The position numbers and the translations under genes are program-made. Below, in pieces: positions 27,506-54,431 of a stretch of 64,000 nucleotides of DNA. A model generated the notes under the pieces. The model was not told where the DNA came from, did not search any database, and worked only from the letters and a program-made list of their open reading frames with translations. This stretch comes from an uncultured delta proteobacterium (lineage in GTDB: Bacteria > Desulfobacterota > Desulfobacteria > Desulfobacterales > SpSt-501), in assembly GCA_963791285.1 (NCBI GenBank), contig CAWBSC010000023.1, positions 259,818 to 323,817 of the forward strand, written 5' to 3'. Position 1 is the first letter of the stretch; every line of letters starts with the position of its first letter.

Positions 27506-29147
27506 GGGGTCACATCTTGACGGGTTGTTGCCCAAATAGATCAAATAGGTCTCGCAAGCGCTGGGTTAATCTGCTAGTAGGAAGCATCTCGTTTACTTCC
27601 ACTTGAGGTGCACCTTCGCCATGATGGGCCGCCAGCCAAAGCCGCAGCAGAAGCTGTTTTACGAGCGGATCCGCCTGGATCAGCGCATCCGCAGCGATCA
27701 TGTGTTGAGGCAGATCGCCACGCACATCGATTTTGATTTCATCTACAAGGAAGTCCGGGATAGCTATGGCAGCAATGGCAATGTGTCCGTGCCGCCGCCG
27801 GTCATCCTGAAGATGATGCTCTTGTTGGTCCTCTATAACGTGCGCTCCGAGCGTGAGTTGCTGGCCACCATCCCGGAGCGCTTGGACTGGCTGTGGTTTT
27901 TGGGGTTTGACCTCGACAGCGAGATCCCCAACCACAGTGTGCTCTCTAAGGCCCGCATGCGCTGGGGGGCCGAGGCGTTCAAACTCTTTTTTGAGCGTAT
28001 CGTGTTGCAATGCGTTGAGGCCGGTCTGGTAGACGGCCGCAAGCTGTTTATGGACAGTTGCTTGGTGCAGGCCGACGCCTCCAACACCTCGGTGGTGAAC
28101 ACCCAAACGCTTAAAGCCCAGCTGGATACAGGTTACCGCAAGCTGCAAGAGCGCCTGGATGAGCCCGCGCAGCCGGAAGCGGTCAACCGCACCCACGTCT
28201 CCACGACCGACCCAGATGCCTCCACCGTGCGCCGAGGCGCGGGCGGCTCACGGCTCAAGTACCAGGTGCACCGGGCGGTGGACGAGCACTGCGAGGTCAT
28301 CACCGCTACCGAGGTGAGCACCGGCTCGGTGCACGAGGCCCATCGCATGGACAGCCTGCTGGATGGCCACGCCCGCAACACGGGTGTTGCCGCCGAAGTC
28401 TGTGTGGCCGACAGCAAGTACGGCACCATGGACAATTACCTCAGCTGCCATGACCGCGGGGTCAAAAGTCATTTTGCCTCATTGGAGCACGGGCAGCGGG
28501 GCTCGGGCCGGCAAGCCGGGATCCTGCCCAAAGAGTCCTTTCGCTATGAGGCGAGCACCGATAGCTTCGTCTGTCCGGCTGGCCGGCGATTGACTCGCCG
28601 CCGCTTCAACGCTCAGCGCCAACAGTGGGAGTACACGGCAGCGTCCAAGACGTGCAGCCACTGCAGCCTGCGGCCGCAGTGCACGCGCAGCCGTGCCGGA
28701 CGCAGCCTCAAGCGTCACCTGCGGCAAGAGGCTCTCGACCAGATGCTCTTGCAATCCCAGAGCCCGCAGGGGCGAGCGGACCGCAAGCAGCGCCAGCACC
28801 TAATGGAGCGCTCCTTTGCCCGCGGCACCCGCTACGGGATCAAGCGGGCGCGCTGGCGCAGGCTGTGGCGCGTGGCCATCCAGGAATATCTGACCGCCAC
28901 CATCCAGAACGTCATGGTTTTGGTTCGCTATCTCAAAGAGCCACTGCGGGCGGTGCCCAGGCCCTTGGGGCGGGTCGAGGACAGCTCAAGACCCGTAGCG
29001 CAGGGCATCGGCAGGCAGTTAGTCGCAAAAGCGGCCGGCTGGTTATCGCACCTCTGGACGGCTCGGCCGTTCCCGAACAGGTTAGTACTCGGTAATTTAA
29101 TATGAGGGCAGTGCTTTGAGCAACAGCCCCTTGATTCTTGATTTTAA
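27506..29147 (+). mobile_element. IS5/IS1182-family insertion sequence, copy 2 (1642 bp), inverted relative to copy 1
   Basis: Co-linear with the reverse complement of 4728-6369 over its full length, with only scattered substitutions. Confidence 0.8.
27603..29105 (+). CDS. IS5/IS1182-family DDE transposase
   Basis: 500 aa, differing at 6 residues from the copy at 4770..6272. Confidence 0.85.
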   Translation: MRCTFAMMGRQPKPQQKLFYERIRLDQRIRSDHVLRQIATHIDFDFIYKEVRDSYGSNGNVSVPPPVILKMMLLLVLYNVRSERELLATIPERLDWLWFLGFDLDSEIPNHSVLSKARMRWGAEAFKLFFERIVLQCVEAGLVDGRKLFMDSCLVQADASNTSVVNTQTLKAQLDTGYRKLQERLDEPAQPEAVNRTHVSTTDPDASTVRRGAGGSRLKYQVHRAVDEHCEVITATEVSTGSVHEAHRMDSLLDGHARNTGVAAEVCVADSKYGTMDNYLSCHDRGVKSHFASLEHGQRGSGRQAGILPKESFRYEASTDSFVCPAGRRLTRRRFNAQRQQWEYTAASKTCSHCSLRPQCTRSRAGRSLKRHLRQEALDQMLLQSQSPQGRADRKQRQHLMERSFARGTRYGIKRARWRRLWRVAIQEYLTATIQNVMVLVRYLKEPLRAVPRPLGRVEDSSRPVAQGIGRQLVAKAAGWLSHLWTARPFPNRLVLGNLI

Positions 29148-33300: not shown

Positions 33301-33893
33301 GCGAGCTCGGCGCGCCGCTGCTTCAGCTCGGAGACGGCCGCGTTGATCCGCTGCTTCTGCCCCGCGGGCCGGAAGAGCGCGTCCGCCTCGGCATTGAGCT
33401 GGTCCAGCACCCGGCCGAGCGGCGCGGATCCGCTGCCGGCGGCGAACAGGAGCCGGCCGAGGTCCCCGCCGCCCCGGACGACCTCGGTCCCGCCGGCGAC
33501 GAGGTCCTCATAGCCGATCCCGAACATGGTCGCAAAAAAACCGGCGTCCACGCCGTTCAGGAACCGCTGCAGCTCCGCGTCCGGCACGACGCTCTCGTCG
33601 GCCGCGCGCCGCAGCGTCCCGGCCCGCCCCTTGCGCCGCACGACGTCCAGAATGCTCCCGTCGGCGGAGCGCAGGACCCCGCCGATCCGCAGTTTCGGGA
33701 AGGGGTGGCGGAACGCGTCGGCGCTGCGCTCCGGGATGCCGTAGAGCAGGTGTCGCAGCGCGCGCAGCGCGGTGGTCTTGCCGGCTTCGTTGGGCCCGTA
33801 GACGATGTGCAGGCCGTGGTCGCCGCCGGAGAGGTCTATCGTCGCGTCCGTGAAGGGGCCGTAGGCCGCGAGATCGAGGCGCAGCACCTTCAT
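30366..33893 (-). CDS. SbcC/YhaN-like AAA ATPase with long coiled coil
   Basis: 1175 aa from MKVLRLDLAAYGPFTD...GPNEAGKTTALRAL (Walker A), through a very long Ala/Arg/Glu/Leu-rich coiled coil, to a C-terminal signature/Walker B region (MSDGTADQLFLALRLA...PFVVDDILITFD). The ATG overlaps the stop of the nuclease gene (ATGA). Confidence 0.8.
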   Translation of the reverse strand: MKVLRLDLAAYGPFTDATIDLSGGDHGLHIVYGPNEAGKTTALRALRHLLYGIPERSADAFRHPFPKLRIGGVLRSADGSILDVVRRKGRAGTLRRAADESVVPDAELQRFLNGVDAGFFATMFGIGYEDLVAGGTEVVRGGGDLGRLLFAAGSGSAPLGRVLDQLNAEADALFRPAGQKQRINAAVSELKQRRAELAAVQLMGAEWARHDRELSAALAAKAAAEGDLQSAQKRLSRLKRIAEAHPVMAARRETLKALQPVADAVLLPEGFADRRGPAFTRLQVAESERDQALSALANLRAALAELGEPEPVLGYAERVEDAYQDLGSQRKAARDRIGLETRRSAQRGEARQILRSLREDLTLEESERLRIRRTEAVRINELGAEYERIVGRIESSRSRAPDLERQAGRVAAALDAAPAPRPVGELRQRVAAAEPALAVERQLPTARAEAEILLNGCADAVAQLGLAVPELRELARLPVPADETVQVFQDRFDRLEHRSAAAAEEARLVEERLAEIERRLEESRLQQEVPTEADLQAARRARDDGWREIRARLQGAPADPAQAGALAEGFETALRSADALSDRLRREADRVAEKARLLADRSGLHPRRGALREELAAVQAELRATAAEWGARWRDVPVRPGSPREMRRWLAQFALALAQAVHALERRSRCAHMEAEVAAARRSVGEGLAALGEPVEAGEVLSELVRRARELVASEDEAARGRDELERERARLRVEIAAAEARRQSDESDFRRWQTDWALAVKPLGLGAEARPAEAGAVIEELKRLFDHLREAEVLQQRLDGIERDAEAFGRNVSLLAAEVARDLSRTSAEPAALELQRRLTAAREAQSRRAALGRQIEEAEERLRNTMAAIAEAHAVLTAMCAEAGCTTVAELPHAERRSDDRRLLEARLGRETERLLQLGGGAAVEDFVREVAAVDPDGIGGEIGRLQDEIRELTTRKSELDQQIGSERAELNRMDGSDRAARIAEDIQSILGGMGRDVEHYARIRIASRVLTTAIERFRERNQGPILRRASALFRQLTCGSFDSLRAELGADGQPVIAGVRPGGGEAVAVDGMSDGTADQLFLALRLAGLEHYLDANEAMPFVVDDILITFDDERAAAALQALSALSARTQVIFFTHHRHLLELAAGVLEPSAVFAHSLPLAAAPPGQRPLRM

Positions 33894-35152
33894 CCGTCGT
33901 CCCCCGCCTTCATCAGCCGGCGCACGAGCATGGACCGGGACTCCGCCAGCAGACCGGCCAGCCGGCCGGGGGAGTCGGGAGTCCACCCCTCCGCCCCATC
34001 CCGGAATTCCCGCGGCAGCTTTTTCTCCAGATCGCTCAGCTCCGCGGCCAGCGCACCCAGCGCGGCGGGATCGGACCCGATCTCGTCGATCAGGCTCATC
34101 AGCTCGCCCACCGCGCCGTCCGGAGGCAGGTCGTCGGTCAAACTCCGCGCGCGCGTGCCCAGCCTGACCTTCTCCACCCACAGGCGCTCGCCCCCGTCTT
34201 CGGCCGCGGCCGCACGGATCTCGTTCTCCCATCGTTCCGGGTCGGACATGAGGTCGTCGTGCGCCGGGGTGGCGCCTTCGACCCGCACGCGCACGACCGT
34301 GAGCCCTTCCGGGTTCGCGGCCAGGAGCGCGGGGATGCCGCGACGGAAGCGGTCGACGAGGTCGTAGGCGATGTCGCTGCCGGCCGCGTCGACGGCCACC
34401 GCCGCCCAGCGCACGACATCCAGCGGCCGGAAGTCGATCGCCGCCCGCCCGGCATCGTCCACGGTAACGAGGATGCAGCCCTTGGCGCCGGTCTCGCGCG
34501 CGTGCCGGCCCTGGGTGTTCCCGGGGAAGACGACGAGCGGCTCCGCGCTCAGGACCTCGCGCTGGTGCACGTGCCCGAGGGCCCAGTAGTCGTAGCCCTT
34601 CTCGCGCAAGGCGGCGAGGGTGCACGGCGCGTAGGGCTCGTGGCCCTCCCGCCCGTTCACGCCGGTGTGGAGCAGGCCCACGTTGAAACAGCCGGGCACC
34701 GGCGCCGGGTACCCCCGGCTCAGGTCCGCGCGCACGGCCGGGGAGCCGAAGCTCTGCCCGTGCACGGCGACGTTCACGGACTCGATCCGGAAGGTGTCGG
34801 GCCGGTCGTGCGGGAAGACCCGTGCGTTGTCGGGCAGGCGCAGGCTGCGGGAGATGCTGCTGGCGGCGTCGTGGTTGCCGGCCGCGAGGATCACGGGGAT
34901 CCCGGCCTCGCGCAGCCGCGCGATGCGGGAGGCGAAGTGCAGGCCCGTGTTGTAGTCCTTCCAGTCGCCGTCGTAGATGTCCCCGGCGAGCACGACGAAG
35001 TCGACCTTCTCCGCCAGCGCCGTCTGCACGAGGTTTTCGAACGCCCGCCGCGTGGCGCCCCGGATTTCCGCGGCCGGCGCGCCCTCGTAGACGTCGAGCC
35101 GCAGCAGCGGGCTGTCGAGGTGGATGTCGGCGGCGTGCAGGAACTTGAACAC
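33890..35152 (-). CDS. SbcD/YhaO-like metallophosphoesterase (DNA repair exonuclease)
   Basis: 420 aa with calcineurin-like motifs (FLHAADIHLDSP, LAGDIYDG, AAGNHD, GHVH). Confidence 0.85.
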   Translation of the reverse strand: MFKFLHAADIHLDSPLLRLDVYEGAPAAEIRGATRRAFENLVQTALAEKVDFVVLAGDIYDGDWKDYNTGLHFASRIARLREAGIPVILAAGNHDAASSISRSLRLPDNARVFPHDRPDTFRIESVNVAVHGQSFGSPAVRADLSRGYPAPVPGCFNVGLLHTGVNGREGHEPYAPCTLAALREKGYDYWALGHVHQREVLSAEPLVVFPGNTQGRHARETGAKGCILVTVDDAGRAAIDFRPLDVVRWAAVAVDAAGSDIAYDLVDRFRRGIPALLAANPEGLTVVRVRVEGATPAHDDLMSDPERWENEIRAAAAEDGGERLWVEKVRLGTRARSLTDDLPPDGAVGELMSLIDEIGSDPAALGALAAELSDLEKKLPREFRDGAEGWTPDSPGRLAGLLAESRSMLVRRLMKAGDDG

Positions 35153-36868: not shown

Positions 36869-37696
36869 ATGAGGTGGAAACAGTTTCTGACCCCCGTGGA
36901 ATCGATGGACCCGGCCTTGGCCCGCGAAACGCTCGCGCGCCAGGGCGGGGCGTTCACCCTGCTCGACGTGCGGCAGCCCGAGGAGTACGCATCCGAGCAC
37001 CTGCCCGGCGCGACGCTCATCCCGCTGCCCGAGCTGAGCAGCCGCCTGGCCGAGCTCGACCCCGGCCGGCCGACCATCGTCTACTGCGCCATCGGCGGGC
37101 GCAGCCGCATCGCGGCGCAGATGCTCGCGGGCAAAGGCTGGGAGAAGGTATTCAACCTCTCCGGCGGCATCAAGGCCTGGCAGGACGAGAAAGCGGCCGG
37201 CCCCGAGGATGTCGGCATGCACCTCTTCTCCGGGTTGGAGTCGGCCGAGGAGACGCTGGTCGCGGCCTGGGCCCTCGAGGAGGGCCTGCGCGCCTTCTAC
37301 GAATCCATGACCGCAACGGTGCGCAGCGAGGCGGCCGGGCGCCTCTTCCGCCAGCTCGCGGGGATCGAAGTCAAGCATCAGGAGCGCATTCTAACCGAAT
37401 ACCAAAAGGTGTCGGGCCGGGCGCTGTCGCGCGCGGAGTTCGACCGCACCGTCGTGAGCCCGGCCATGGAGGGCGGGATGCCGACCGAGGACTACCTCGA
37501 ACGCTACCACCCGGACATGGAGTCGCCGGCGGACATCGTCTCGCTCGCCATGGCCATCGAGGCTCAGGCGCTCGACCTCTACCAGCGGGCCGCCGCGCGG
37601 GCGTCGGCGGACACGCGCGCGGTCCTGTCGCAGATCGCCGACGAGGAGCGCGCGCACCTCGAGCAGCTGGGCAGGCTTTTCCGCAACCCGATGTGA
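36869..37696 (+). CDS. rhodanese domain fused to a ferritin-like (rubrerythrin-type) domain
   Basis: The N-terminal rhodanese domain has the active-site loop YCAIGGRS. The C-terminal four-helix part has E..H pairs (IEVKHQERI and ADEERAHLEQL). Confidence 0.7.
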   Translation: MRWKQFLTPVESMDPALARETLARQGGAFTLLDVRQPEEYASEHLPGATLIPLPELSSRLAELDPGRPTIVYCAIGGRSRIAAQMLAGKGWEKVFNLSGGIKAWQDEKAAGPEDVGMHLFSGLESAEETLVAAWALEEGLRAFYESMTATVRSEAAGRLFRQLAGIEVKHQERILTEYQKVSGRALSRAEFDRTVVSPAMEGGMPTEDYLERYHPDMESPADIVSLAMAIEAQALDLYQRAAARASADTRAVLSQIADEERAHLEQLGRLFRNPM

Positions 37697-37707
37697 CGGA
37701 GGCAGGC

Positions 37708-38271
37708 ATGCGAGGGGACGATCCGGGCGTTTCGAACGTGGCGGTGACCCTGGCCGACGAGTCCAAGACCCGTCTCAACCGGCTGCGGGGTGACGCCGTC
37801 CTGGTGCTGGTCTTCCTGCGCCACTTCGGCTGACCGTTCTGCCGCGCGCAGGTAGCGCAGTTGCGCTCCGAGGAAAACCGCTTTCGAGCGGCGGGCGCCC
37901 GCATCGTGCTGGTGGGGATGGGATCCCCCCCGGAGTGCCGGGCCTTTCTGCAGAAGTTCGACGTGCCCTTCCCCATGATCGCCGACCCCGAACGCGAGCT
38001 CTACCGGCGCTTTCACCTCGAGCGCATGTCCCCGCTGCGGGTCCTGTCGCCGGGCATGCTGGTCAAGGGGGTCGCGGCCCTCTCGAGAGGCCACCTGCCG
38101 GGGGTCCCTCAGGGCGACGTGCTGCAGCTGCCGGGGGTCTTCGTCATCGGCGCGGAAGACCGCGTGTGCCGGGCCTTCGCCCCGGCCGACCCCGCCGGCC
38201 ACCCGTCGCCCGACGACATCCTGAAGGCCGTCGCGGACTGCCCCGGGGGCCCAGCGCCGCCCCGGCCCTGA
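37708..38271 (+). CDS. peroxiredoxin-like (PRX_like2/AhpC-TSA fold) protein with in-frame TGA, probable selenoprotein (UPFC motif)
   Basis: The ATG at 37708 has a GGAGG RBS. It reads ...VLVLVFLRHFG-TGA(37831-37833)-PFCRAQVAQLRSEENRFRAAGARIVLVG... in a single frame. The TGA replaces the first Cys of the family's CxxC motif. Confidence 0.7.
37834..37870 (+). promoter_or_regulatory. candidate bacterial SECIS hairpin
   Basis: GCGCAG (37846-37851) pairs with UUGCGC (37861-37866). The 9-nt apical loop GUAGCGCAG starts 19 nt after the UGA. An alternative pairing is CUGC(C)GC/GCGCAG. Confidence 0.45.
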
Positions 38272-38293
38272 TCATTTCTCGGAATTTCTATGA

Positions 38294-40906: not shown

Positions 40907-42430
40907 CTACCCGGGGCCCGGGGATGGCGCCGGGGCCGCTTCGCGACGGATCAGCCGCATGACGCTTCGGATCACGACAGGTCCGACCAGGGCGAGGAGC
41001 CCCGTCGCCAGGATGACGGCCGAAATGGGGCGGGCGATAAAAATCGATAGATCCCCGCGGCTGATCATCATGGCCTCCCGGAAGCTCCTCTCCATCATCG
41101 GGCCGAGCACCAGCGCCAGAACCAGCGGGGCCAGATCGTACTTGAGGTGCCGCAGCAAGTACCCCAGCAGTCCGAAGCCGATCATCAGCCAGAGGTCCAG
41201 GACCGAGTTGTTGACCGAGTAGACGCCGATCAGGCACAGCAGCATCACGATCGGCATCAGCAGATACAGCGGCGTGCGGATGATGCTCGCGAAAAACCCC
41301 ACGAGCGGGAGGTTGAAGATCAACAGCATGAAATTGCCGATGTACATGCTGGCGATCACGCCCCAGAACAGGTCGGGCTTCTCGTTCACCAGCTGCGGCC
41401 CGGGGTTGATCCCGTTGATGATGAGAACCGCCATGACCACCGCCATGACGGGCGTGAACGGAATGCCCAGCGCCATCAGCGGGACGTAGGCGGCTCCGAC
41501 CGCCGAGTTGTTGGCCGCCTCCGGGCCGGCGACCCCTTCGATGCTGCCTCGGCCGAACTCGCCGTGGCGGTCGAGCTTGCGCTCGACCGAGTAGGAGACC
41601 ATGGTCGCGATGACCGGCGACGGGCCGGGCACGAGGCCGACGAAGAAGCCGATGAACGAGCCTCGGATGATCGGCCAGAAAGAGCGCTTCCATTCCACGA
41701 GGGTCGGCCAGAGCTCCCGGAAGCGGACCTTCTGCAGCTGCACGCTGGAAACCTTCTCCTCCGCCGTCACGAGCACTTCCGAAATGCCGAAAAGCCCCAT
41801 CGCGACCGGGAGAAAATCGATCCCCTGGGCCAGGAGCGGCTGCCTGAAGGTGTAGCGCATGTAGCCCGCGACGGTTTCCATGCCCACCGTGCCGAGCGCG
41901 AGCCCGATGCCGATCATCATCAGCGATTTCATCAGCTCCCCGCCGGTCAACCGCGACATGATCACCAGCCCGACCAGCGCGACCGTGAAGTACTCGGGCG
42001 GCCCGAACTTGAGCGCGGCCCGGGCGAGCGAGGGCGCGATCAGGCTCAACCCGATCAGGCTGATGGTGCCGGCGATGAACGACCCGATCGCGGCAACCGC
42101 CAGGGCCGCACCGGCCCGGCCGCGGCGCGCCATCTGGTAGCCTTCGATGACCGTGATGACCGAAGCCGCCTCGCCCGGGATGTTGAGCAGGATCGAGGTG
42201 GTCGACCCGCCGTACATCGCGCCGAAGTAGATGCCGGCGAACAGGATCATGCCGGCGATCGGGTCCAGTCCGTAAGTCAGCGGCAGCAGCAGCGCCATGG
42301 TGCCCAGAGGCCCCAGCCCGGGCAGGATGCCGATGACCGTCCCGATGACGGCCCCCAGGAACCCGAAGAAGAGGTTCAGGGGCGTCAGCGCGACTGAAAA
42401 GCCGTGCAGCAGACCACTCGAAAAATCCAT
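40907..42430 (-). CDS. tctA: tripartite tricarboxylate transporter large permease TctA
   Basis: 507 aa, polytopic, with a typical TctA N-terminus (LLHGFSVALTPLNLFFGFLGAVIGTVIGILPGLGP). Confidence 0.85.
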   Translation of the reverse strand: MDFSSGLLHGFSVALTPLNLFFGFLGAVIGTVIGILPGLGPLGTMALLLPLTYGLDPIAGMILFAGIYFGAMYGGSTTSILLNIPGEAASVITVIEGYQMARRGRAGAALAVAAIGSFIAGTISLIGLSLIAPSLARAALKFGPPEYFTVALVGLVIMSRLTGGELMKSLMMIGIGLALGTVGMETVAGYMRYTFRQPLLAQGIDFLPVAMGLFGISEVLVTAEEKVSSVQLQKVRFRELWPTLVEWKRSFWPIIRGSFIGFFVGLVPGPSPVIATMVSYSVERKLDRHGEFGRGSIEGVAGPEAANNSAVGAAYVPLMALGIPFTPVMAVVMAVLIINGINPGPQLVNEKPDLFWGVIASMYIGNFMLLIFNLPLVGFFASIIRTPLYLLMPIVMLLCLIGVYSVNNSVLDLWLMIGFGLLGYLLRHLKYDLAPLVLALVLGPMMERSFREAMMISRGDLSIFIARPISAVILATGLLALVGPVVIRSVMRLIRREAAPAPSPGPG

Positions 42431-42997: not shown

Positions 42998-43981
42998 TCA
43001 TTTGCCGGCTGTGGCTTCCTTGCCGTACTTGTCCCAGAGCGGCCGGTAGATCTCGCCCAGCCGGGTCATGAAGGTCGAGAATTCCGCCGGCCCCATGTAG
43101 TCGGCCGGGAAAGCGGTCTTCGCGGCGTTCTCCTTGAATTCCTGCGACTCCATGACGTCCTTCACCGCTGCCGCGAACTTGTCCACGATCGCCTTGGGGG
43201 TCTTCGCGGGCATGCCGAAGCCGCGGGCGCTGCCGCTCGTGAAATCGTAGCCGAGCTCTTTGAAGGTGGGCACGTCCGGCAGGAAAAGGGAGCGCTTGTC
43301 AGTCATGACGGCGAGGGCCCGCAGCGCGCCGGCTTTCACCTGCGGGTAGACGATGCCGAGGTTGTTGGCGGAGGCGTCGACGTGCCCGGCCAGCGCGGCC
43401 TGCCAGGAGGGGCCGTCGCCCGAGAAGGGCACGATGTTGTACTTCGTTCCGGTCGCCTGCTGCAGCATGTGCATGGCGAACCAGTCGTCGCCGGGGGCCG
43501 ACGCGACGCCGACGCTGATGGTGGCCGGCTTCTCCCTGGCCGCCTGGATGAAGTCGGCCAGGGTCTTGTAGGGGCTCTCGGCCCGCACCACCAGGATGCC
43601 GGGGTCCGTGACGACGTTCGCCACGAATCCGAGGTCAGAGATTTTGTAGGCGGTCTCGCGTACGTAGGCGTTGATGGGGATCATCGGAGTGGTGGTGACG
43701 ACGACCGTGTAGCCGTCGGGCTTGGACACCGCCAGTTCGGTCAGCGCGATGTCGCTCCCGGAGCCCGGCTTGTAGACCGGGACCAGGGTGGTCTTCAGGA
43801 CCCGCTCGAGCTGCGGCCGGATCATGGACAGCATCACGTCGCTGCCGCCCCCGGGCGCGTAACCGATCAGGACGTTGATCGGCTTGCGGGGGTAATCGGC
43901 GTCGGCCGACTTGCCCTGGGCCGACAGGTTGGTTGCGAGGAGCACACAGCCCAGAACGACGAGAACGGACTTCTTGAACAT
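42998..43981 (-). CDS. tctC: tripartite tricarboxylate transporter substrate-binding protein (TctC/Bug family)
   Basis: Signal peptide MFKKSVLVVLGCVLLATNLSA, YPRKPINVLIGYAPGGGSD, and an AAGGAGA RBS. Confidence 0.85.
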   Translation of the reverse strand: MFKKSVLVVLGCVLLATNLSAQGKSADADYPRKPINVLIGYAPGGGSDVMLSMIRPQLERVLKTTLVPVYKPGSGSDIALTELAVSKPDGYTVVVTTTPMIPINAYVRETAYKISDLGFVANVVTDPGILVVRAESPYKTLADFIQAAREKPATISVGVASAPGDDWFAMHMLQQATGTKYNIVPFSGDGPSWQAALAGHVDASANNLGIVYPQVKAGALRALAVMTDKRSLFLPDVPTFKELGYDFTSGSARGFGMPAKTPKAIVDKFAAAVKDVMESQEFKENAAKTAFPADYMGPAEFSTFMTRLGEIYRPLWDKYGKEATAGK

Positions 43982-44226
43982 TGGCAGTCTCCTTGTTTGA
44001 GAGGTGCGGAAAGCCTCGGTGGCCATCGCAGGAGGTTCCCGATGCCGCGAATGTTTCCTTTACCGTACCCGGCAGAACAAGTGGAGTGCTTTTTTTTGAC
44101 GCATCCCTATCCTGTCGCAGCCGGGTCGATCAGGGGCATGGGCTGATGCGGTACCCGGGTCGACGAGATGCGTCGCATCCGCCTGAACGACGTGTGCGGG
44201 GACCCGGGCGTATCGATCCTGTAGGC

Positions 44227-47095: not shown

Positions 47096-49000
47096 TCAGC
47101 TCGGTTGCATGAGGCGCTTGACGAGCGGCACGGCACTGCCGGCGTCCTTGGCATACCCGTCCGCGCCGATGTCGTGCGCGAATTTCTCGTTCAGCGGCGC
47201 CCCGCCGACAATGACCTTGAGCCCGTCGCGCAGGCCGGACTCGGCCAGCTGCCGGATGATGGACTTCATCTCCGGCATCGTCGTGGTGAGCAGGGCCGAA
47301 AGGGCCAGCACGTCCGGCCGATAGTCCTGGACCTGCTTCAGGAACTCCTTGGCGGGCACGTTGATGCCCAGATCGCGGATCTCGAAGCCGACCCCGCGCA
47401 GCATCGTGGCAACGATGTTCTTGCCGATATCGTGCAAGTCCCCGCGCACGGTGCCGATCAGGACCTTGCCCGCCCTCCGCATCTTGTCCTTCGACAGGAA
47501 CGGCTCGAGCGTTGCGGTCGCTTCGTTCATGGCGCGCGCGGACAGCAGCACCTCCGGGATGAACACTTCGCCGTTGCGGAACCGCTCGCCGATGACCTCC
47601 ATCGCGGGCAGCATGCCCTTCTGCAGGATGTCGCCGGCGTCAACGCCCATTTGCAGCAACGCCTTCACATGCTGCGTGATCGCCAGGTGGTCGCCCGTGA
47701 GCACGTCGGCCTGGACGTTTTCGAATCCCTGCGCGAAACTGAAGGCCGTGCGAGGCGCCGCGGCCACGTCCGCGGGTGCGAAGACCGGGTTGAACCCCCC
47801 GGCCTCGATCGGCAGACGGGCCTCCTCCGCGATGCGCTGCCCGATGCGGCGGATGCGGTCGAAGACCGCGTTGGGGGGAACCGAGTCGGCGATGCCGAAG
47901 ATCATCCGCCGGCCCGGGGCGACCGCCTTGAAGAGGTGCGTCATGTAAGCGTCGAACTCCTCGTCGCTGGTGCTTTCCGCCAGGAGCAGGATGGACGGGA
48001 TTCCCCCGTAGATCGTGAGCGTCCGGCTCCACCGCGCGTAGTACTCGTCCATCGTGACCTTGGTCATCGGGTGCGGCGTCACGGCCTCGGCCACGTGCAT
48101 ACCCGAGTCGCGGATCAGATCCATCAGCCCCCTGTTCTCGCCGTCGCAGTGGCAGGAAATGTAGATCCCCTGGGCGCCCAGGGTATCGGCCGCTTTGCGG
48201 ATCCACGGCATGATATCCGCCTCGAAGTACGCGGGGTAGGTGATCATGTCGTCGAAGTTGGCCCCCCAGTAGACGGCCTCAGCGGGCGAGCGGCCGATGA
48301 GGTCGATGGTCTGGTCGAAGAAGGGGGCCATGCTCTCGGCGAGCGCCGTCATCTCGCGCCGGTGGTCCTTGTAGTGGAAAAAGAACTCGGTCGCGTCGAT
48401 GAAGTACTTCTGGATGTGGTGCACCGGGGACGCGGCGCGGCCCGCCATGGTGAAGGCCAGGCCGTCTTCGCCGATGTCCCGCTTCCAGGCAACGAAGTCG
48501 TCCCAGTCCGGATGGAGTTTCAGGTTGGCGAAGATGTGGGCCAGGGGCGCGTAGTCTTTTGCCGTCTTGATCGGATGCTCCTCAATGTTGAATCCGGTGA
48601 CCCCCGCCCGCCGCATGGCCTCGGTGAACACGATGCACGTGCTGACGTCCCCCCGGGGGGTGTGGTAGGTGATGCGCGTACGCCCGTTGTCGTGCCGGAT
48701 GTCGACGTCCACGTCCGAGGGCAGCGTGTAGTTGAAGACCATCTCCTTGAAGGAGAGGATCCCCAGCCCCCAGTGGATGTGGTCCTCGGGCCGGCGGACA
48801 TCCTGGTAGGCGGGGTTGATCTTGTGCAGTCCCCAGCCTTCGGCGCGCGAGATCTCGTCCTGGGTGCAGTCCCGGTACGTGGCCGGCAACCCGCCCAGGC
48901 TCTTCTGGGCCGAGTACCAGAGGTCCAGCCGGGGGGCGAAGGGGATGACGTCCGGCATCTCCCCCCTGATCGCCTTCAAGATGCGTTGCTTGTTGGTCAT
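47096..49000 (-). CDS. URO-D-like methyltransferase fused to a corrinoid-binding module (CmuA/MtaA-plus-corrinoid-protein architecture)
   Basis: 634 aa. The N-terminal about 400 aa is a uroporphyrinogen-decarboxylase-family fold. This is followed by a B12-binding_2 cap (GDILQKGMLPAMEVIGERFRNGEVFIPEVLLSARAM) and a B12-binding domain with DxHxxG (GDLHDIGKNIV), ALSALLTTTM and VIVGGAPL. Confidence 0.8.
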   Translation of the reverse strand: MTNKQRILKAIRGEMPDVIPFAPRLDLWYSAQKSLGGLPATYRDCTQDEISRAEGWGLHKINPAYQDVRRPEDHIHWGLGILSFKEMVFNYTLPSDVDVDIRHDNGRTRITYHTPRGDVSTCIVFTEAMRRAGVTGFNIEEHPIKTAKDYAPLAHIFANLKLHPDWDDFVAWKRDIGEDGLAFTMAGRAASPVHHIQKYFIDATEFFFHYKDHRREMTALAESMAPFFDQTIDLIGRSPAEAVYWGANFDDMITYPAYFEADIMPWIRKAADTLGAQGIYISCHCDGENRGLMDLIRDSGMHVAEAVTPHPMTKVTMDEYYARWSRTLTIYGGIPSILLLAESTSDEEFDAYMTHLFKAVAPGRRMIFGIADSVPPNAVFDRIRRIGQRIAEEARLPIEAGGFNPVFAPADVAAAPRTAFSFAQGFENVQADVLTGDHLAITQHVKALLQMGVDAGDILQKGMLPAMEVIGERFRNGEVFIPEVLLSARAMNEATATLEPFLSKDKMRRAGKVLIGTVRGDLHDIGKNIVATMLRGVGFEIRDLGINVPAKEFLKQVQDYRPDVLALSALLTTTMPEMKSIIRQLAESGLRDGLKVIVGGAPLNEKFAHDIGADGYAKDAGSAVPLVKRLMQPS

Positions 49001-49038: not shown

Positions 49039-50229
49039 TCAGCCCATCTCGAAAATTTTCCGGTGCATTCTGAACGACCGGGTTCGCGCTCCGAGGAGCG
49101 ATGCTGCCAGCGGTCGGGTCAGCCGGCGAAAGGGCTCAATGTCGGTCTGGATGAACACCGCGCCTTGCCGGATCATCTTCGCCTTGTCGTCCGACCAGAG
49201 TTGAAGCGTTTGGGCGGAGTAGTCGCGGCCGGCCTCCGTGCTCACCTGATGGAGCGCGGCCTGCAGGTCCTTGCGCAGTGACTGGAAGCTGGCTTCGCCG
49301 ATCAACAGGCAGGCGCGCGAGTACAGGTGACGGGTGTGCGTGATGTAGCGCGCCAGCCGGTGCAACCCGGCGTCGCGGATCGCGTCACGCGGCACGTCCG
49401 CAGCATCCACCTCCCCCGTTTCGAGGCAGCGCCGGATATCGCGGAAGGCGGACGGCACGGGGACGGCCCCCAGCGCCTCCCAGTGGCGATGGTAGCTGGG
49501 AATGGGCGGCACGCGCAGGCGCAGGCCGGCCAGGTCCCCCACGGTCATGCACGGCCGCTTGGCGATCAACACGCGGGAGGGCCTGAGCCAGTTGTCGGCC
49601 AGGACCCGCACCCCGCATTTCACGCGCACCCGATCCCTCAGCTCGGCCGCGATCTGGCTTTCCACGAAATCCCGCACATGCGCGAGATCCCGGAACAGAA
49701 AGGGGATGTTGGTGATGCCGTACACCGGGTCCAGCTTCTCCAGCCAGTCTGCCGCGGCACCAAACATCTCCAACTCGCCATTGCAGAGCATGGCCAACTG
49801 CTCGGTGTCCGACCCGATGCGCGAGGATGGGACCACGTCCACACACACCTGGTTGCGCGTCAGCTCCGCCATCCGGCGGGCGAACTGGGTCTGCGATTTA
49901 ACGATGAAGGATTCGGGGGGGTAGATGGCCCCCAGCCGCAGCCTCACGCCGGTCGGCGAGGGATCGCCTTTCATCCGCAGCGGGGCGACGAAGCTCCCCG
50001 CCCCCTGCCTGCGGGTGACCAGGCCTTCGTGAGTCAGGAGTTGCAGAACGTAGCGCGCGGTGTGCCGGCTGACCGCGAACTGCTCCGCGATCGCCTTTTC
50101 CGTGGGCATGCGTTCGCCGGGGAGATATTTCCCGGAAGCGATGAGGGCCTTCAGATGGCTGTGGATCTGGCGGTAGCGCGGGGCGCCGTCATGCAAGGGC
50201 GAGGAGTGGGGGGGCGCGATGGGTCCCAT
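49039..50229 (-). CDS. GntR-family winged-helix regulator fused to a DctP-like (TRAP solute-binding) domain
   Basis: 396 aa from MGPIAPP. The GntR HTH is RYRQIHSHLKALIASGKYLPGERMPTEKAIAEQFAVSRHTARYVLQLLTHEGLVTRRQGAGSFV. About 300 aa follow, similar in pattern to DctP proteins (GSDTEQLAMLCNGELEM...ITNIPFLFRD...). Confidence 0.7.
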   Translation of the reverse strand: MGPIAPPHSSPLHDGAPRYRQIHSHLKALIASGKYLPGERMPTEKAIAEQFAVSRHTARYVLQLLTHEGLVTRRQGAGSFVAPLRMKGDPSPTGVRLRLGAIYPPESFIVKSQTQFARRMAELTRNQVCVDVVPSSRIGSDTEQLAMLCNGELEMFGAAADWLEKLDPVYGITNIPFLFRDLAHVRDFVESQIAAELRDRVRVKCGVRVLADNWLRPSRVLIAKRPCMTVGDLAGLRLRVPPIPSYHRHWEALGAVPVPSAFRDIRRCLETGEVDAADVPRDAIRDAGLHRLARYITHTRHLYSRACLLIGEASFQSLRKDLQAALHQVSTEAGRDYSAQTLQLWSDDKAKMIRQGAVFIQTDIEPFRRLTRPLAASLLGARTRSFRMHRKIFEMG

Positions 50230-50428
50230 GAATTTGTATGGTTTTGCGTACAACCCGGCATTATGCGGGTTGAACGAAAAAGTCAACCGCTGTCGGGTTC
50301 CGCGCATCCGGGCCGGTGCAGGCCTCTCCGGCGGTCGATCCCGCTCCCGCCCGTACGACGCATTTCGGCTACGGTTGACGTATGTCGTTGCCGGACCAGT
50401 CAGTCGCCTCTCCGGCGTCGAACTGCCA

Positions 50429-50457
50429 TTGACATCCCATTTTGTCATATGATAACT
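50429..50457 (+). promoter_or_regulatory. possible sigma-70 promoter for the LacI-family gene, overlapped by a TGACA-N8-TGTCA palindrome
   Basis: TTGACA (50429-50434), a 17-nt spacer, then ATAACT (50452-50457). The palindrome spans 50430-50447. The start codon is only about 9 nt downstream, so the mRNA would be near-leaderless. Confidence 0.3.
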
Positions 50458-50465
50458 GACGCCCC

Positions 50466-51503
50466 ATGGGAAAACGATTGCCCACGCCCCCGACCCTGAA
50501 GGACGTCGCGAGCCTGGCCAAGGTCAGCATCCCCATCGTGTCCAAGGTCCTCTCCGGCAACCCGCAGGTCCGGGTGAGCGCGGACACCCGGCAACGCATC
50601 CAAAAAGCCGCCAGCCGCCTGTCATACCGCCCGAACGCTTCCGCCCGCAGCCTCAAGGTCAAACGCACGTACACCCTTGCCCTGTTCGTGCCCGATGTCG
50701 GAAACCCGGTCATCCCCGAGATCATACGGGGGGTCGAGTCCGGCGCCCGCGAGCGCGGCTACTCGGCGTTCGTGAGCCACCTCGATGAAAAGGCGACTCG
50801 GGACCGGCTCTACCTCACGTGGCTCCAGGAGGGACGCTTCGACGGGTTGATCATCGCGACCACGCGGGTGGAGGATGCGATCATTGCCGATTTGATCCGG
50901 TCGGGACGGCCGTTCGTGCTCGTCAACCGCCGGGAGGCTTCGACCAACCAGCACATCACCGTGGACGATGCCGGCGGGGCCCGGGTCGCCGTGGCACACC
51001 TGGCGGCGTTGGGCCACCGTCGCATCGCCCACCTGGCCGGCCCCCTGCTGTTCGACACCGCCCTGCGGCGCCTTCAAGGCTACCGCCAGGAGCTGAGCAC
51101 CCATGGGATCCCCTACGACCCGGGGCTGGTGCAGGAGTACGAGTGGCACACCTGGGAAGGCGGCAAGACCGCGATGAATCGTCTGCTCCGGAAGAAGCGG
51201 CGGCCGACAGCGGTTTTCGCGGGCAACTTAATGGGAGCGGTGGGGGCGCTGAGCGCCGTCAAATCGGCGGGAATCAAGGTCCCGGAGGAGATGTCGATCA
51301 TCGGACTCCACGACTCGCCGATAGCGGATGTGCTCGATCCGCCCCTCACGGTGGTGAGAATGCCGTTGTACGAAATGGGAAAGGGGGCTTCGGCCATGCT
51401 CGTCGATCTGCTGGAAGAGCGGGCGGAGGTGGCCCCGCTCATGCTCCCGTGCGGCGGGCTGGTGACTCGGAGATCGACCTGCCCCTGCCCGACAGGGGCA
51501 TGA
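50466..51503 (+). CDS. LacI-family transcriptional regulator
   Basis: The N-terminal HTH is TLKDVASLAKVSIPIVSKVLSG, followed by a periplasmic-binding-protein-like sugar-binding core. Confidence 0.9.
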   Translation: MGKRLPTPPTLKDVASLAKVSIPIVSKVLSGNPQVRVSADTRQRIQKAASRLSYRPNASARSLKVKRTYTLALFVPDVGNPVIPEIIRGVESGARERGYSAFVSHLDEKATRDRLYLTWLQEGRFDGLIIATTRVEDAIIADLIRSGRPFVLVNRREASTNQHITVDDAGGARVAVAHLAALGHRRIAHLAGPLLFDTALRRLQGYRQELSTHGIPYDPGLVQEYEWHTWEGGKTAMNRLLRKKRRPTAVFAGNLMGAVGALSAVKSAGIKVPEEMSIIGLHDSPIADVLDPPLTVVRMPLYEMGKGASAMLVDLLEERAEVAPLMLPCGGLVTRRSTCPCPTGA

Positions 51504-51554
51504 GGGCTTGAACCTGGAACCCAAGCGAGCAAACGATTAACCCCGGAGGGCAAA

Positions 51555-52544
51555 ATGAGAATGAACCGGCGCACCATCACCATCACCTGCATGTTCCTGA
51601 CCTTGGCGATCCTGTGGGCCGTCCCGGCCAGTGCCGCCCGCACCCTGAAGTATGGCCACAACACCAAGGAAAACCAGCCGACCGGCAAGGCCGCGCTCCT
51701 GTTTGCCGACCTGGTTCAAAAGAAGACCAACGGCGAAATCGTGGTCCAGGTGTTCCCCAACAACCAGCTGGGCAACAACAAGCAGATGGCGGACAACCTG
51801 CGCATGGGCGCCCTTGACCTGAGCACGATGGGGCTCGCCGCCCTGGCCTATCTGAACGACGCCTACATGATGATGCAAGTGCCCTACGTGTTCCGCTCCC
51901 AGGAACACATTCACAAGGTCGTCAACGGCGAGATCGGGCAGCAGCTGAAGGCCGATTTCGCGCAGAAGAACGGGATCGTCCTGTTGGCGCAGGATTGGGA
52001 CCGGATGCCCCGGCACATTGCCGGGCGAAAACCCATTCGCACGCTCGAGGACTTCAAAGGCTACAAAGTCAGGGCCGGAGTGCTTCCGCCGATTGTCGGC
52101 TTCAAGGCCATCGGTGCGAGCCCGGTGGACATCCCGCTGAACGAGATGTACCTCGCGCTTCAGCAGGGGGTGGTGGACGGAGCCGAGCTGCCGACGGACT
52201 ACATCTACGAGTACTCCATCTTCGAGGTCAGCAAGTATTTCAACAAGACCTCCCACACGTTCGGGACGCAGTTCCTCGGGATCAACAAGCGCGTGTGGGA
52301 CTCGCTCAAGCCCGAACACCAGAAAGCCATCCAGGAGGCGGCCGACGAGGCCGGGAGATTCAACAACAAGCTGGATGCCGAGCTGCAGGATGACTACATC
52401 GAAAAGCTGAAAAAAGGCGGCATGGAATTCGTCGACACCGACGTGGAGGCGTTCCGGAAGGCCACCTTCGAGAAGATCAACGAGATCTCCAAGAACTGGG
52501 AAGGCGGGGCCAAGCTCTTCGAGCGGATTCAGGCGACCCAATAA
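51555..52544 (+). CDS. dctP: TRAP transporter substrate-binding protein DctP
   Basis: 329 aa with a signal peptide and LKYGHNTKENQPTGKAA. GGAGGG RBS is present. Confidence 0.9.
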   Translation: MRMNRRTITITCMFLTLAILWAVPASAARTLKYGHNTKENQPTGKAALLFADLVQKKTNGEIVVQVFPNNQLGNNKQMADNLRMGALDLSTMGLAALAYLNDAYMMMQVPYVFRSQEHIHKVVNGEIGQQLKADFAQKNGIVLLAQDWDRMPRHIAGRKPIRTLEDFKGYKVRAGVLPPIVGFKAIGASPVDIPLNEMYLALQQGVVDGAELPTDYIYEYSIFEVSKYFNKTSHTFGTQFLGINKRVWDSLKPEHQKAIQEAADEAGRFNNKLDAELQDDYIEKLKKGGMEFVDTDVEAFRKATFEKINEISKNWEGGAKLFERIQATQ

Positions 52545-52598
52545 ATGGGTACGACGGGCGGCCGGGCGGCGAACCGGACCCCCACGTGGAGGCGGACA

Positions 52599-54431
52599 AT
52601 GGAAACGTTCTTCAGCTTTCTGGACCGAGTGGAGCATTCTCTCAAGTGGGTGTGCATGGCCCTCGTGATCGGGCTGAGCCTGCTCGTGTTCTCCTCCGTG
52701 ATGTTCCGCTACCTCCTGAACAGCCCGATCGAGTGGGCGGACGAGGTCGTCGGCTTCTTCATCCTGGGGCTGACGTATTTCGGGTCGGCCGTGGCCTGTA
52801 GCCGCCGTTCCCAGATCTATGTTGAAATCGTGGAATCGGCCCTAAAGAAGAAACCCGGAGCCCTGCGATGGGTGCGGATCGGCGTGGACACGGTCGTGAT
52901 GATCGCGCTGGTCGCGATGGTGTTCGTCGGGCTTCAGCTCTGCGTCGACTGCCGCACCCAGAAGACCGGCATCCTCGTGCTGAGCTATTTCTACGTTTAC
53001 CTGATCATGCCGGCCGGCGTGTCCTTCATGATTCTCATGATGATCAAAAAGCTGATCCAGGACACGCGGGAAGGCAAAGCGCCGAAGACCGCAGCAGCTC
53101 CACAGATCGGCCGCTATGCATCGAACCCGGGCAGGAGGGAATCATTCATGTTGAGCCTGTTGATCGGAGGGCTGCTGTCGCTGATGGCCACCGGGATCCC
53201 CATTGCGGTGTGCATGCTCATGATCGGCATCATTTACATGATCCAGCAGGAAATCCCGCTCATGGTGGCCGCACAGTACATGACCGAGGGCGCCATGCTG
53301 AACGTCCTCATCGCCATCCCGCTGTACCTGCTCACGGGGGTGCTGATGAACGAGGTGGGGATGAGCCACCGCATCGTACGGCTCTGCAACGCCGTGGTCG
53401 GGCACATCCGGGGCGGGCTGGCCATCGTGAACGTGATGGCCTGCATGATCTTCGCGGGCATGACCGGCGAGGCGGTGGCCGAAACCGCGGGCCTGGGCTC
53501 GGTCATGGTGCCCGCCATGGAGAAGGACGGCTACGACAAGCCGTTCGCCTCGGCGCTGACGGTCACGGCGGCCGTGATCGGCCCGATCATTCCGCCCTCC
53601 GTGCCCATGATCATCTGCTCGGCCCTGGCATCCCTGAGCGTAGGGCGGATGTTCCTGGGAGGCATGATCCCGGGGATCCTCTTCGGGGTGCTCCTGATGG
53701 GCCTCAGCTATTTCTACGCGGTGCGGCGCAACTACCCCATCAAGGCCAAGGCCGCCAAGGGCGAATTCTGGGTTTCGCTCAAGGATGCCTGCTTCGGGCT
53801 CCTGACGATCTTCATCATTTTGGGGGGGATCTTCACCGGGGTGTTCACACCGGTGGAGGCGGCCGGCATCGCGGCCGTTTACAGTTTCCTGGTGGGCCTC
53901 TTCATCTATCGCAGCCTCGACCTGAAAAAGCTGCCGAAGATGTGCCTCGATGTGGCCGTGAGCACGGGCGTCATCATGTTCATCATCGCCATGGCCGGGC
54001 TTTATAATTTCGTGTTGACCCGCGAGCGGATCCCGCAGGAAGTCATCCGCCTGGTCATGGGCGTCAGCCAGGACCAGACCGTTCTCCTGATTATGATCAG
54101 CATCGGACTGTTCATCCTGGGCTGTTTCCTGAGCACCACCCCGGCGCTGCTCCTGGTGGTGCCGGTCCTCTCGCCCCTGGTGCAGCAGGCGACCTTTCAC
54201 CCGATCCACTTCTGGGTGGTCATCGTCCTGGCGCTGTTGCTGGGAACGCTCACGCCTCCGGTCGGGATCAACCTTTACCTGATCACCAGCATTTCCGGTG
54301 TAGGTACCGGGCGGTTGATCAGGGAATTGCCGCCGTTCTACATGGTGCTCATCTCCGTGATCTTCATCGCGATTTTCTGCCCATGGATCGTGACCGCTCC
54401 CGGGGATTGGGTATACGGAACGCGGGTATGA
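52599..54431 (+). CDS. TRAP transporter fused DctQ-DctM permease
   Basis: 610 aa in a single ORF. A DctQ-like N-terminal 4-TM part joins through a short linker to a DctM-like part (MLSLLIGGLLSLMATGIPIAV...). GGAGG RBS is present. Confidence 0.85.
   Translation: METFFSFLDRVEHSLKWVCMALVIGLSLLVFSSVMFRYLLNSPIEWADEVVGFFILGLTYFGSAVACSRRSQIYVEIVESALKKKPGALRWVRIGVDTVVMIALVAMVFVGLQLCVDCRTQKTGILVLSYFYVYLIMPAGVSFMILMMIKKLIQDTREGKAPKTAAAPQIGRYASNPGRRESFMLSLLIGGLLSLMATGIPIAVCMLMIGIIYMIQQEIPLMVAAQYMTEGAMLNVLIAIPLYLLTGVLMNEVGMSHRIVRLCNAVVGHIRGGLAIVNVMACMIFAGMTGEAVAETAGLGSVMVPAMEKDGYDKPFASALTVTAAVIGPIIPPSVPMIICSALASLSVGRMFLGGMIPGILFGVLLMGLSYFYAVRRNYPIKAKAAKGEFWVSLKDACFGLLTIFIILGGIFTGVFTPVEAAGIAAVYSFLVGLFIYRSLDLKKLPKMCLDVAVSTGVIMFIIAMAGLYNFVLTRERIPQEVIRLVMGVSQDQTVLLIMISIGLFILGCFLSTTPALLLVVPVLSPLVQQATFHPIHFWVVIVLALLLGTLTPPVGINLYLITSISGVGTGRLIRELPPFYMVLISVIFIAIFCPWIVTAPGDWVYGTRV

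Follow-up and report, generated by a model that had tools for sequence, protein, structure and literature searches.

A predicted SelL-related selenoprotein with a UxxC active site, annotated as two fragments, in an uncultured delta proteobacterium

The UxxC peroxiredoxin-like (Prx-like) thiol:disulfide oxidoreductases, where U stands for selenocysteine (Sec), are abundant in Deltaproteobacteria and were already predicted as selenoproteins of bacteria in the first surveys of prokaryotic selenoproteomes (PMC1976440, PMC2398784, PMC13188914). In this work we describe a probable member of this class, encoded at positions 37708-38271 of a 64,000-nucleotide stretch of contig CAWBSC010000023.1 from an uncultured delta proteobacterium; we refer to the whole of this stretch as the window. 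Judging from sequence comparisons, we put at roughly 88% the probability that 37708-38271 is one gene for a thioredoxin-fold SelL-related/PRX-like2 oxidoreductase with the active site U42-P-F-C45, its Sec being decoded from UGA. The locus has in common with the UxxC Prx-like class, and with the NCBIfam family NF040769, a thioredoxin fold, the motif G-[U/C]-x-x-C-R, a mixture of Sec and Cys forms and a predicted selenocysteine insertion sequence (SECIS) inside the coding sequence. It differs in its operon link to a rhodanese-rubrerythrin gene, its high-GC (66%) uncharacterised lineage and its split annotation, none of which is an essential difference. The gene and its signals, including an open reading frame (ORF) interrupted by UGA, are as follows.

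37698-37702, + strand: Shine-Dalgarno sequence GGAGG, read from the sequence.
37708-38271, + strand: full predicted selenoprotein ORF, a SelL-related/PRX-like2 thioredoxin-fold redox protein of 187 residues (NF040769, PF13911).
37831-37833, + strand: in-frame UGA, the predicted Sec codon U42 at the first position of UxxC, aligned to the Cys of homologs.
37840-37842, + strand: TGC, Cys45, the second (resolving) residue of UxxC, from the sequence and the alignment.
37851-37869, + strand: SECIS-like hairpin H2, from folding and covariation, with pairs G51-C69 and G52-C68 (last two digits of the coordinates), a bulged U53, the core 37854-37858/37863-37867 and the loop AGUU at 37859-37862.

The frame 37708-38271 holds one in-frame TGA (37831-37833) and closes at the TGA at 38269-38271. 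Read through, it gives a product of 187 residues including U42, MRGDD...AVLVLVFLRHFG-UGA-PFCRAQVAQLRSEEN..., and the DNA around the predicted Sec codon is ATG...GGC TGA CCG TTC TGC CGC on the + strand from 37708. An earlier sequence-only reading of this DNA had noticed two same-frame pieces split by the TGA, and both the sequence and the ORF list bear this out, the one piece ending at 37833 and the other being a TTG-started ORF at 37861-38271. It had also placed a ribosome-binding site before the upstream piece only. This is what we find: GGAGG at 37698-37702 lies 5 nucleotides ahead of the ATG at 37708, and the downstream TTG start has no comparable site.

With the TGA translated as Cys, profile scans of the 187-residue protein match the NCBIfam model NF040769, "SelL-related redox protein", at 153.9 bits (cut-off 120, E = 3.1e-45) over model positions 5-172 of 173. 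The Pfam family AhpC-TSA_2 (PF13911) is matched at 61.5 bits against a gathering threshold of 27, and there are further Pfam matches to AhpC-TSA (PF00578) and Redoxin. The redox motif, which follows a hydrophobic beta strand, is FLRHFG-U-PFC-R in the window compared with FLRHFG-C-[PT]-F-C-R in Cys homologs. The best solved relative in a PDB sequence search is the prostamide/prostaglandin F (PGF) synthase 9us9_A (E = 7.7e-8, residues 24-175), in which RRFGCVVCR is aligned with LRHFG-U-PFCR; the ResA-type thiol-disulfide oxidoreductases come next. The Pfam matches, NF040769 and the homolog alignment all support the initial proposal that the TGA takes the place of the first Cys in G-C-x-x-C-R in a thioredoxin-fold PRX_like2/AhpC-TSA protein. 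The description "peroxiredoxin-like" needs more care. It is right for the Prx-like2-type thioredoxin fold, but the NCBIfam Prx equivalogs score far under their cut-offs (24.5 vs 260 and 19.7 vs 140), and the peroxidatic PxxxT/SxxC motif is not present, F-L-R-H-F-G standing before U42 with no Thr or Ser at -3 and no Pro at -7. These two observations mark the predicted product as an oxidoreductase of the CxxC type with a thioredoxin fold, and not as a peroxiredoxin in the strict sense.

We collected 80 homologous genomic loci from species-representative genomes and checked these at the DNA level. The codon in the TGA column is TGA in 43 of the 80 loci and TGC or TGT in 31. Full-length homologs align a Cys to this column (FLRHFG-C-[P/T]-F-C), so that the alignment with Cys homologs, which had been suggested as a check, identifies the TGA column with the first Cys of CxxC. 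Among the metagenome-assembled genomes (MAGs) that bear the TGA are ones labelled Desulfobacterales, Desulfosarcina, Thermodesulfovibrionales, Chloroflexi/Anaerolineae, Armatimonadota, Actinomycetota, Planctomycetia, Clostridia and Binataceae.

Two further labels deserve a separate remark. The Sec genes in a MAG labelled Flavobacteriaceae (L021) and one labelled beta proteobacterium (L008) are near-identical in motif and SECIS to Desulfobacterales copies, which suggests either that the contigs are mis-binned or that the Sec form was recently transferred horizontally along with its SECIS.

All of the close relatives examined, drawn from ENA, JGI, NCBI MAGs and Logan and amounting to 22 independent contigs, retain the TGA, and their N-terminal piece is intact and conserved. 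We regard it as very improbable that the gene is a pseudogene, or that a sequencing or assembly error has turned a Cys codon into TGA, even though the source assemblies look error-prone (a neighbouring cation ATPase is found in 2-5 ORFs in sister contigs) and the hairpin is not statistically special in the window alone. The identical TGA is found in the window, in the near-identical sister assemblies L081 and L106-L108 and in a further 17 independent contigs that come from different projects and assemblers, in addition to the 43 distant homologs. Both flanks of the TGA are in frame and conserved, and the C-terminal piece has a ratio of nonsynonymous to synonymous substitution rates (dN/dS) of 0.16-0.21 among close relatives, indicating purifying selection; two comparisons with L084, out of register by one codon, were left out. 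Furthermore, roughly 100 of the nearest database protein clusters (45-92% identity) are C-terminal fragments of 104-144 residues that begin just past the TGA with VAQLR..., LR... or MR...; gene callers have halted at the same spot in each case. The sequence-only reading expected automated annotation to yield two fragments, and the source assembly and all of the relatives are indeed annotated with a 41-residue ORF and a 129-139-residue ORF.

The genetic code of the window is standard, since TGA is the commonest ordinary stop among its ORFs with a high G+C content at third codon positions (GC3). A genome-wide reassignment of TGA to sense (of the code 4 or 25 type), with no Sec involved, is to our minds scarcely credible. 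The in-frame TGA itself is all that speaks for it, while TGA ends the majority of the high-GC3 ORFs of the window, including the neighbours and the Sec gene itself at 38269-38271. When the whole window was screened for TGA codons flanked by coding-like GC3 on either side, none but 37831-37833 had a plausible protein context. The remaining in-frame TGA candidates were rejected; these resemble off-frame noise rich in Arg, Ser and Pro. Taken together, the conservation of the TGA across loci and contigs, the selection on the gene and the standard stop usage exclude sequencing error, a recent pseudogene and code reassignment.

A more serious alternative takes the UGA as a true stop, giving a 41-residue peptide and a 136-residue protein from TTG 37861, or has it read through by a near-cognate tRNA (Trp or Cys) without Sec. 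Gene callers yield exactly those two ORFs, and neither a tRNA-Sec in the window nor selA, selB or selD among its ten largest ORFs was found. That said, the 136-residue piece would be without strand beta1 and the entire redox motif by which the fold is defined, and its start, besides the missing ribosome-binding site, is not conserved: relatives need GTG, TTG or ATG at differing positions, and a GTG of the relatives is GTA in the window. A selenoprotein is ordinarily recognised by the pairing of Sec and Cys at a redox-active Cys (PMC13188914), and the members that bear TGA specifically share a covarying hairpin that conforms to the bacterial SECIS (bSECIS) model, as described below. We therefore rate this alternative as improbable, and return to Sec decoding as the preferred reading.

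The constraints on a bSECIS have been given as a loop of 3-9 nucleotides, a stem of 4-16 base pairs, a G in the first two loop positions followed by U, a distance of 16-37 nucleotides from the UGA and a minimum free energy of -7.5 kcal/mol or lower (PMC13188914). H2 falls within all four ranges, with a loop of 4 nucleotides (AGUU), a stem of 5 base pairs plus 2 past the bulge, a spacing of 25 nucleotides and an energy of -10.5 kcal/mol. Its core pairs are A54-U67, G55-C66, C56-G65, G57-C64 and C58-G63, that is, columns 24-28 with 33-37 counted from the U of UGA. It is both the centroid structure and the most stable local fold in the window.

The family-wide evidence for H2 comes from explicit pair counting on 38 distinct Sec-type sequences, compared with 500 shuffles. 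In the H2 helix 76.8% of the cells are paired, and changes on both sides of a pair occur in 13 cells where 3.9 are expected. For covariation the helix scores 0.246, compared with 0.117 for the shuffles; none of the 500 shuffles matches it and every slid register is beaten. More divergent clades host a hairpin at the same place with another sequence and register, e.g. GGCC-AGGUU-GGCC, GUCGC-CGGGUU-GCGAC, or GCUCGCC...GGCUGAGC and GCUCACC...GGUUGAGC, between which a G-C pair has undergone a compensatory change to A-U. Cys-type homologs, folded one by one, have no hairpin at a consistent position. Over the same 36 nucleotides the median energy is -11.9 kcal/mol for Sec-type and -7.4 kcal/mol for Cys-type sequences (Mann-Whitney p = 2e-6, not corrected for phylogeny). 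The functional SECIS is most likely H2, at 37851-37869. A SECIS-like hairpin just downstream of the TGA had been anticipated, and a conserved hairpin does exist there, although it is not the GCGCAG/UUGCGC pairing that was originally drawn. The loop GU had been placed about 19 nucleotides after the UGA; this was mistaken, as the conserved loop AGUU has its GU 27-28 nucleotides after it.

Several results weigh against the view that this is a Sec-decoded gene with its own SECIS. Within the window, the hairpin is no more stable than dinucleotide shuffles are (z = +0.98 and +1.42), and when 36-mers are drawn from the window at random, 39% of them equal or exceed its stability. Single-sequence folding is uninformative in a window of this GC content, so the evidence for a SECIS must be comparative. 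For the same reason, a folding test in which the lack of a stable hairpin is taken as a refutation, as first proposed for this locus, is unusable here, because hairpin stability in the window is not above chance. RNAalifold finds no consensus structure on the 38 Sec-type sequences, which we attribute to the pairing register varying between clades. The comparison of Sec- and Cys-type sequences and the shuffle statistics ignore phylogenetic non-independence. The 41-codon N-terminal piece, with few sites, has a dN/dS of about 0.65-0.71, which amounts to weak purifying selection. A tRNA-Sec was not found in the 64-kb window, either by ARAGORN or in a whole-window Rfam scan, which found three tRNAs only. 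None of the ten largest ORFs of the window, which were tested for this, is selA, selB or selD; these encode transporters, regulators, a B12-binding protein, NfeD, an AAA ATPase and similar proteins. Finally, we found no experimental selenium incorporation or activity for any member of the family in the searchable literature.

Two further null results belong here. An Rfam scan of 37780-37930 gives no SECIS-like match, only chance-level hits to Fluoride and P18, and in the searchable literature we found nothing on NF040769 or "SelL-related" proteins by name, nor a published account of the Sec form of NF040769 specifically.

Which hairpin, then, would serve as the SECIS in the window? Besides H2 we considered the pairing drawn in the sequence-only reading, which we call H3, and one alternative structure.

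37846-37858, + strand: alternative hairpin H1, GCGC, loop AGGUA, GCGC, mutually exclusive with H2, from folding.

H3 pairs GCGCAG at 37846-37851 with UUGCGC at 37861-37866 around the loop GUAGCGCAG. It can form, and at -8.0 kcal/mol it is formally within the bSECIS constraints. It is conceivable, though we think it unlikely, that the selenoprotein is genuine and that the functional SECIS of the window is H1 or H3 and not H2. H1 is retained by every member of the clade of the window, including six relatives (L082, L089-91, L095 and L096) that have ...QLASERE in place of ...QLRSEEN and in which the 3' arm of H2 has been replaced. In L082, the only one of the six that was folded, H2 cannot form, and H1, with the loop AGGUG, is extended to a stem of 16 bp that starts immediately behind the UGA, with an energy of -23.4 kcal/mol and a 56% share of the ensemble. 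The GGU of H1 lies about 21-23 nucleotides from the U of UGA, near G23/U24 of the E. coli fdhF element. In the window, on the other hand, H1 is weak (about -6.2 to -6.5 kcal/mol), short of the -7.5 kcal/mol of the bSECIS model, and local folding favours H2, which is also the centroid, as the most stable structure (-10.5 kcal/mol against -6.2 for H1 and -8.0 for H3). The column-17 base pair that enables H1 and H3 is found in only 1 of the 38 family sequences, as pair 17-35 in the case of H3, for which 498 of the 500 shuffles pair as well. Neither hairpin covaries, and H1 has no family-wide support outside the clade of the window. H2 remains our preferred SECIS.

These variants raise the doubtful idea that the clade of the window is mid-way through an intragenic relocation of its SECIS from H2 to H1, an idea drawn from a small number of sequences. 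In the clade, Glu has changed to Ala (GAG to GCG, column 17), which creates H1. The path may have been that this change made H1, 9 nucleotides nearer to the UGA, and that an Arg-to-Ala change in sister lineages then replaced the 3' arm of H2; in L082 it is this second change that lengthens H1. The window still carries both hairpin sequences. If the idea is true, this would be a natural series of a protein-coding SECIS migrating via coupled amino-acid and RNA changes.

Directly upstream of the selenoprotein gene is a second gene.

36869-37696, + strand: fusion of a rhodanese and a rubrerythrin/ferritin-like di-iron domain, 275 residues, from Pfam matches and motifs read in the protein.

The fusion gene ends at 37696, 11 nucleotides before the ATG of the selenoprotein gene, and has the same orientation. 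Its rhodanese active-site loop, YCAIGGRS, is intact and the di-iron domain contains two ExxH motifs. No specific NCBIfam model matches the fusion, and the rhodanese-rubrerythrin family, with more than 2,500 matches at E <= 1e-10, is highly conserved and apparently uncharacterised. Relatives down to about 69% identity have retained the pair of genes, including those whose outer flanks differ. Among the 80 distant homologs of the Sec gene there are no conserved neighbours, and the rhodanese-rubrerythrin gene is not nearby. Elsewhere, homologs of the fusion neighbour radical SAM and pyridine-nucleotide disulfide oxidoreductase genes, or metallo-beta-lactamase and DUF6600 genes. The rhodanese/ferritin-like neighbour, which the sequence-only reading had taken to fit a thiol/sulfur redox operon, is present and kept within the lineage, but it is not linked across the family. 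As the linkage is confined to this lineage, the operon partner constrains the function of the selenoprotein only weakly. Linkage to the rhodanese/di-iron protein is a hint that the chemistry may involve peroxides or persulfides, and a more speculative suggestion is that the operon marks a new two-component system for peroxide/persulfide or for selenium handling.

We propose the following mechanism, based on the standard Sec pathway and on CxxC homologs. A ribosome reaching the UGA at 37831-37833 would meet SelB·GTP·Sec-tRNA(Sec) tethered by the intragenic hairpin, most likely that at 37851-37869, and selenocysteine would be inserted instead of termination. Sec42 would occupy the nucleophile position and attack an oxidised substrate, which could be a disulfide, a peroxide/endoperoxide, a sulfenate or a persulfide. 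Cys45 would then resolve the adduct to give an intramolecular selenenylsulfide, to be re-reduced by a thioredoxin-type reductant. In this lineage the product of the co-transcribed rhodanese/di-iron fusion gene could plausibly serve as its redox partner or as a carrier of its substrate.

A number of other features of the window were recorded along the way. Downstream of the Sec gene lies an RraA-like gene on the opposite strand, in a convergent arrangement. The sister assemblies L106-L108 (locus coordinates of about 11.4-14.3 kb) have a P-type cation ATPase gene between the Sec and RraA-like genes, and the window (about 38272-38293) is without it. In two of these three assemblies the ATPase is broken into 2-5 ORFs, which suggests assembly frameshifts or a decaying gene. 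A 1,642-bp inverted repeat, 99% identical, is found at 4728-6369 and 27506-29147, with its arms bracketing about 21 kb. Each arm contains a 511-residue DDE transposase ORF (PF13751, PF05598, PF01609), so there are two copies of an insertion sequence, which may form a composite transposon or stem from a duplication in the assembly. A tRNA-Gly(gcc) is called by ARAGORN at 34843-34919 (+) inside an SbcD-like Metallophos ORF at 33890-35152 (-); Rfam misses it at the gathering threshold and it is probably a false positive. Genes for organic-acid uptake, which are unrelated to the Sec gene, are dense at 42998-44059, 40907-42430 and 49039-54431. These encode TctC, TctA, two DctP-type binding proteins (one of them GntR-fused), a fused DctQM and a LacI-type regulator. 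A protein with a B12-binding domain is encoded at 47096-49000.

The results presented here are mainly of importance for annotation. Both this gene and its relatives, which fill more than 100 database clusters, have been entered as a 41-residue ORF and a truncated "peroxiredoxin", and as a result of this split the catalytic residue is missing from every derived protein record. The gene also marks an uncultured high-GC lineage as a likely user of selenium, and it is a clean example of the interchange of Sec and Cys at a CxxC site across many phyla. The H1 and H2 variants are a compact natural data set on the evolution of bacterial SECIS elements under coding constraint. General knowledge of selenoproteins is unchanged by this gene.

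How does the predicted protein compare with the known systems? SelL proper, from eukaryotes and marine bacteria, reportedly carries two Sec residues in a UxxU motif that form a diselenide (Shchedrina and colleagues, PNAS, 2007). It is said to share with the protein of the window a Prx-like2/thioredoxin-like fold, a motif at the CxxC position and, in bacterial forms, a SECIS that closely follows this motif within the coding region. We do not find the UxxU motif here: the second position is TGC (Cys45) in the window and Cys in all 43 Sec-type loci. With UxxC, and a predicted selenenylsulfide in place of the diselenide, the protein is "SelL-related" and not SelL.

The animal protein PRXL2B, the prostamide/PGF synthase (PDB 9us9, 9usa), has an FGCxxCR aligned to FG-U-PFCR and shares a downstream GD.LQ.G. 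It is, however, a Cys form of about 25-30% identity that reduces endoperoxides, and the likeness does not imply the same substrate for the protein of the window. As for the SECIS, that of E. coli fdhF has a 6-nucleotide loop about 17 nucleotides after the UGA. H2 resembles it and the bSECISearch consensus in being a stem-loop in the coding sequence after the UGA, with a loop G followed by U, a bulged U (U37853) and a distance and energy within range. It differs in its 4-nucleotide loop AGUU, 25 nucleotides after the UGA, and has no sequence similarity to the fdhF element and no Rfam match.

In summary, the Sec gene is an unannotated new representative of a known, NCBI-curated family and will be no surprise to the specialist. 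What it adds is modest: the scale of mis-annotation in public protein sets, an operon partner specific to the lineage and a possible shift from H2 to H1.

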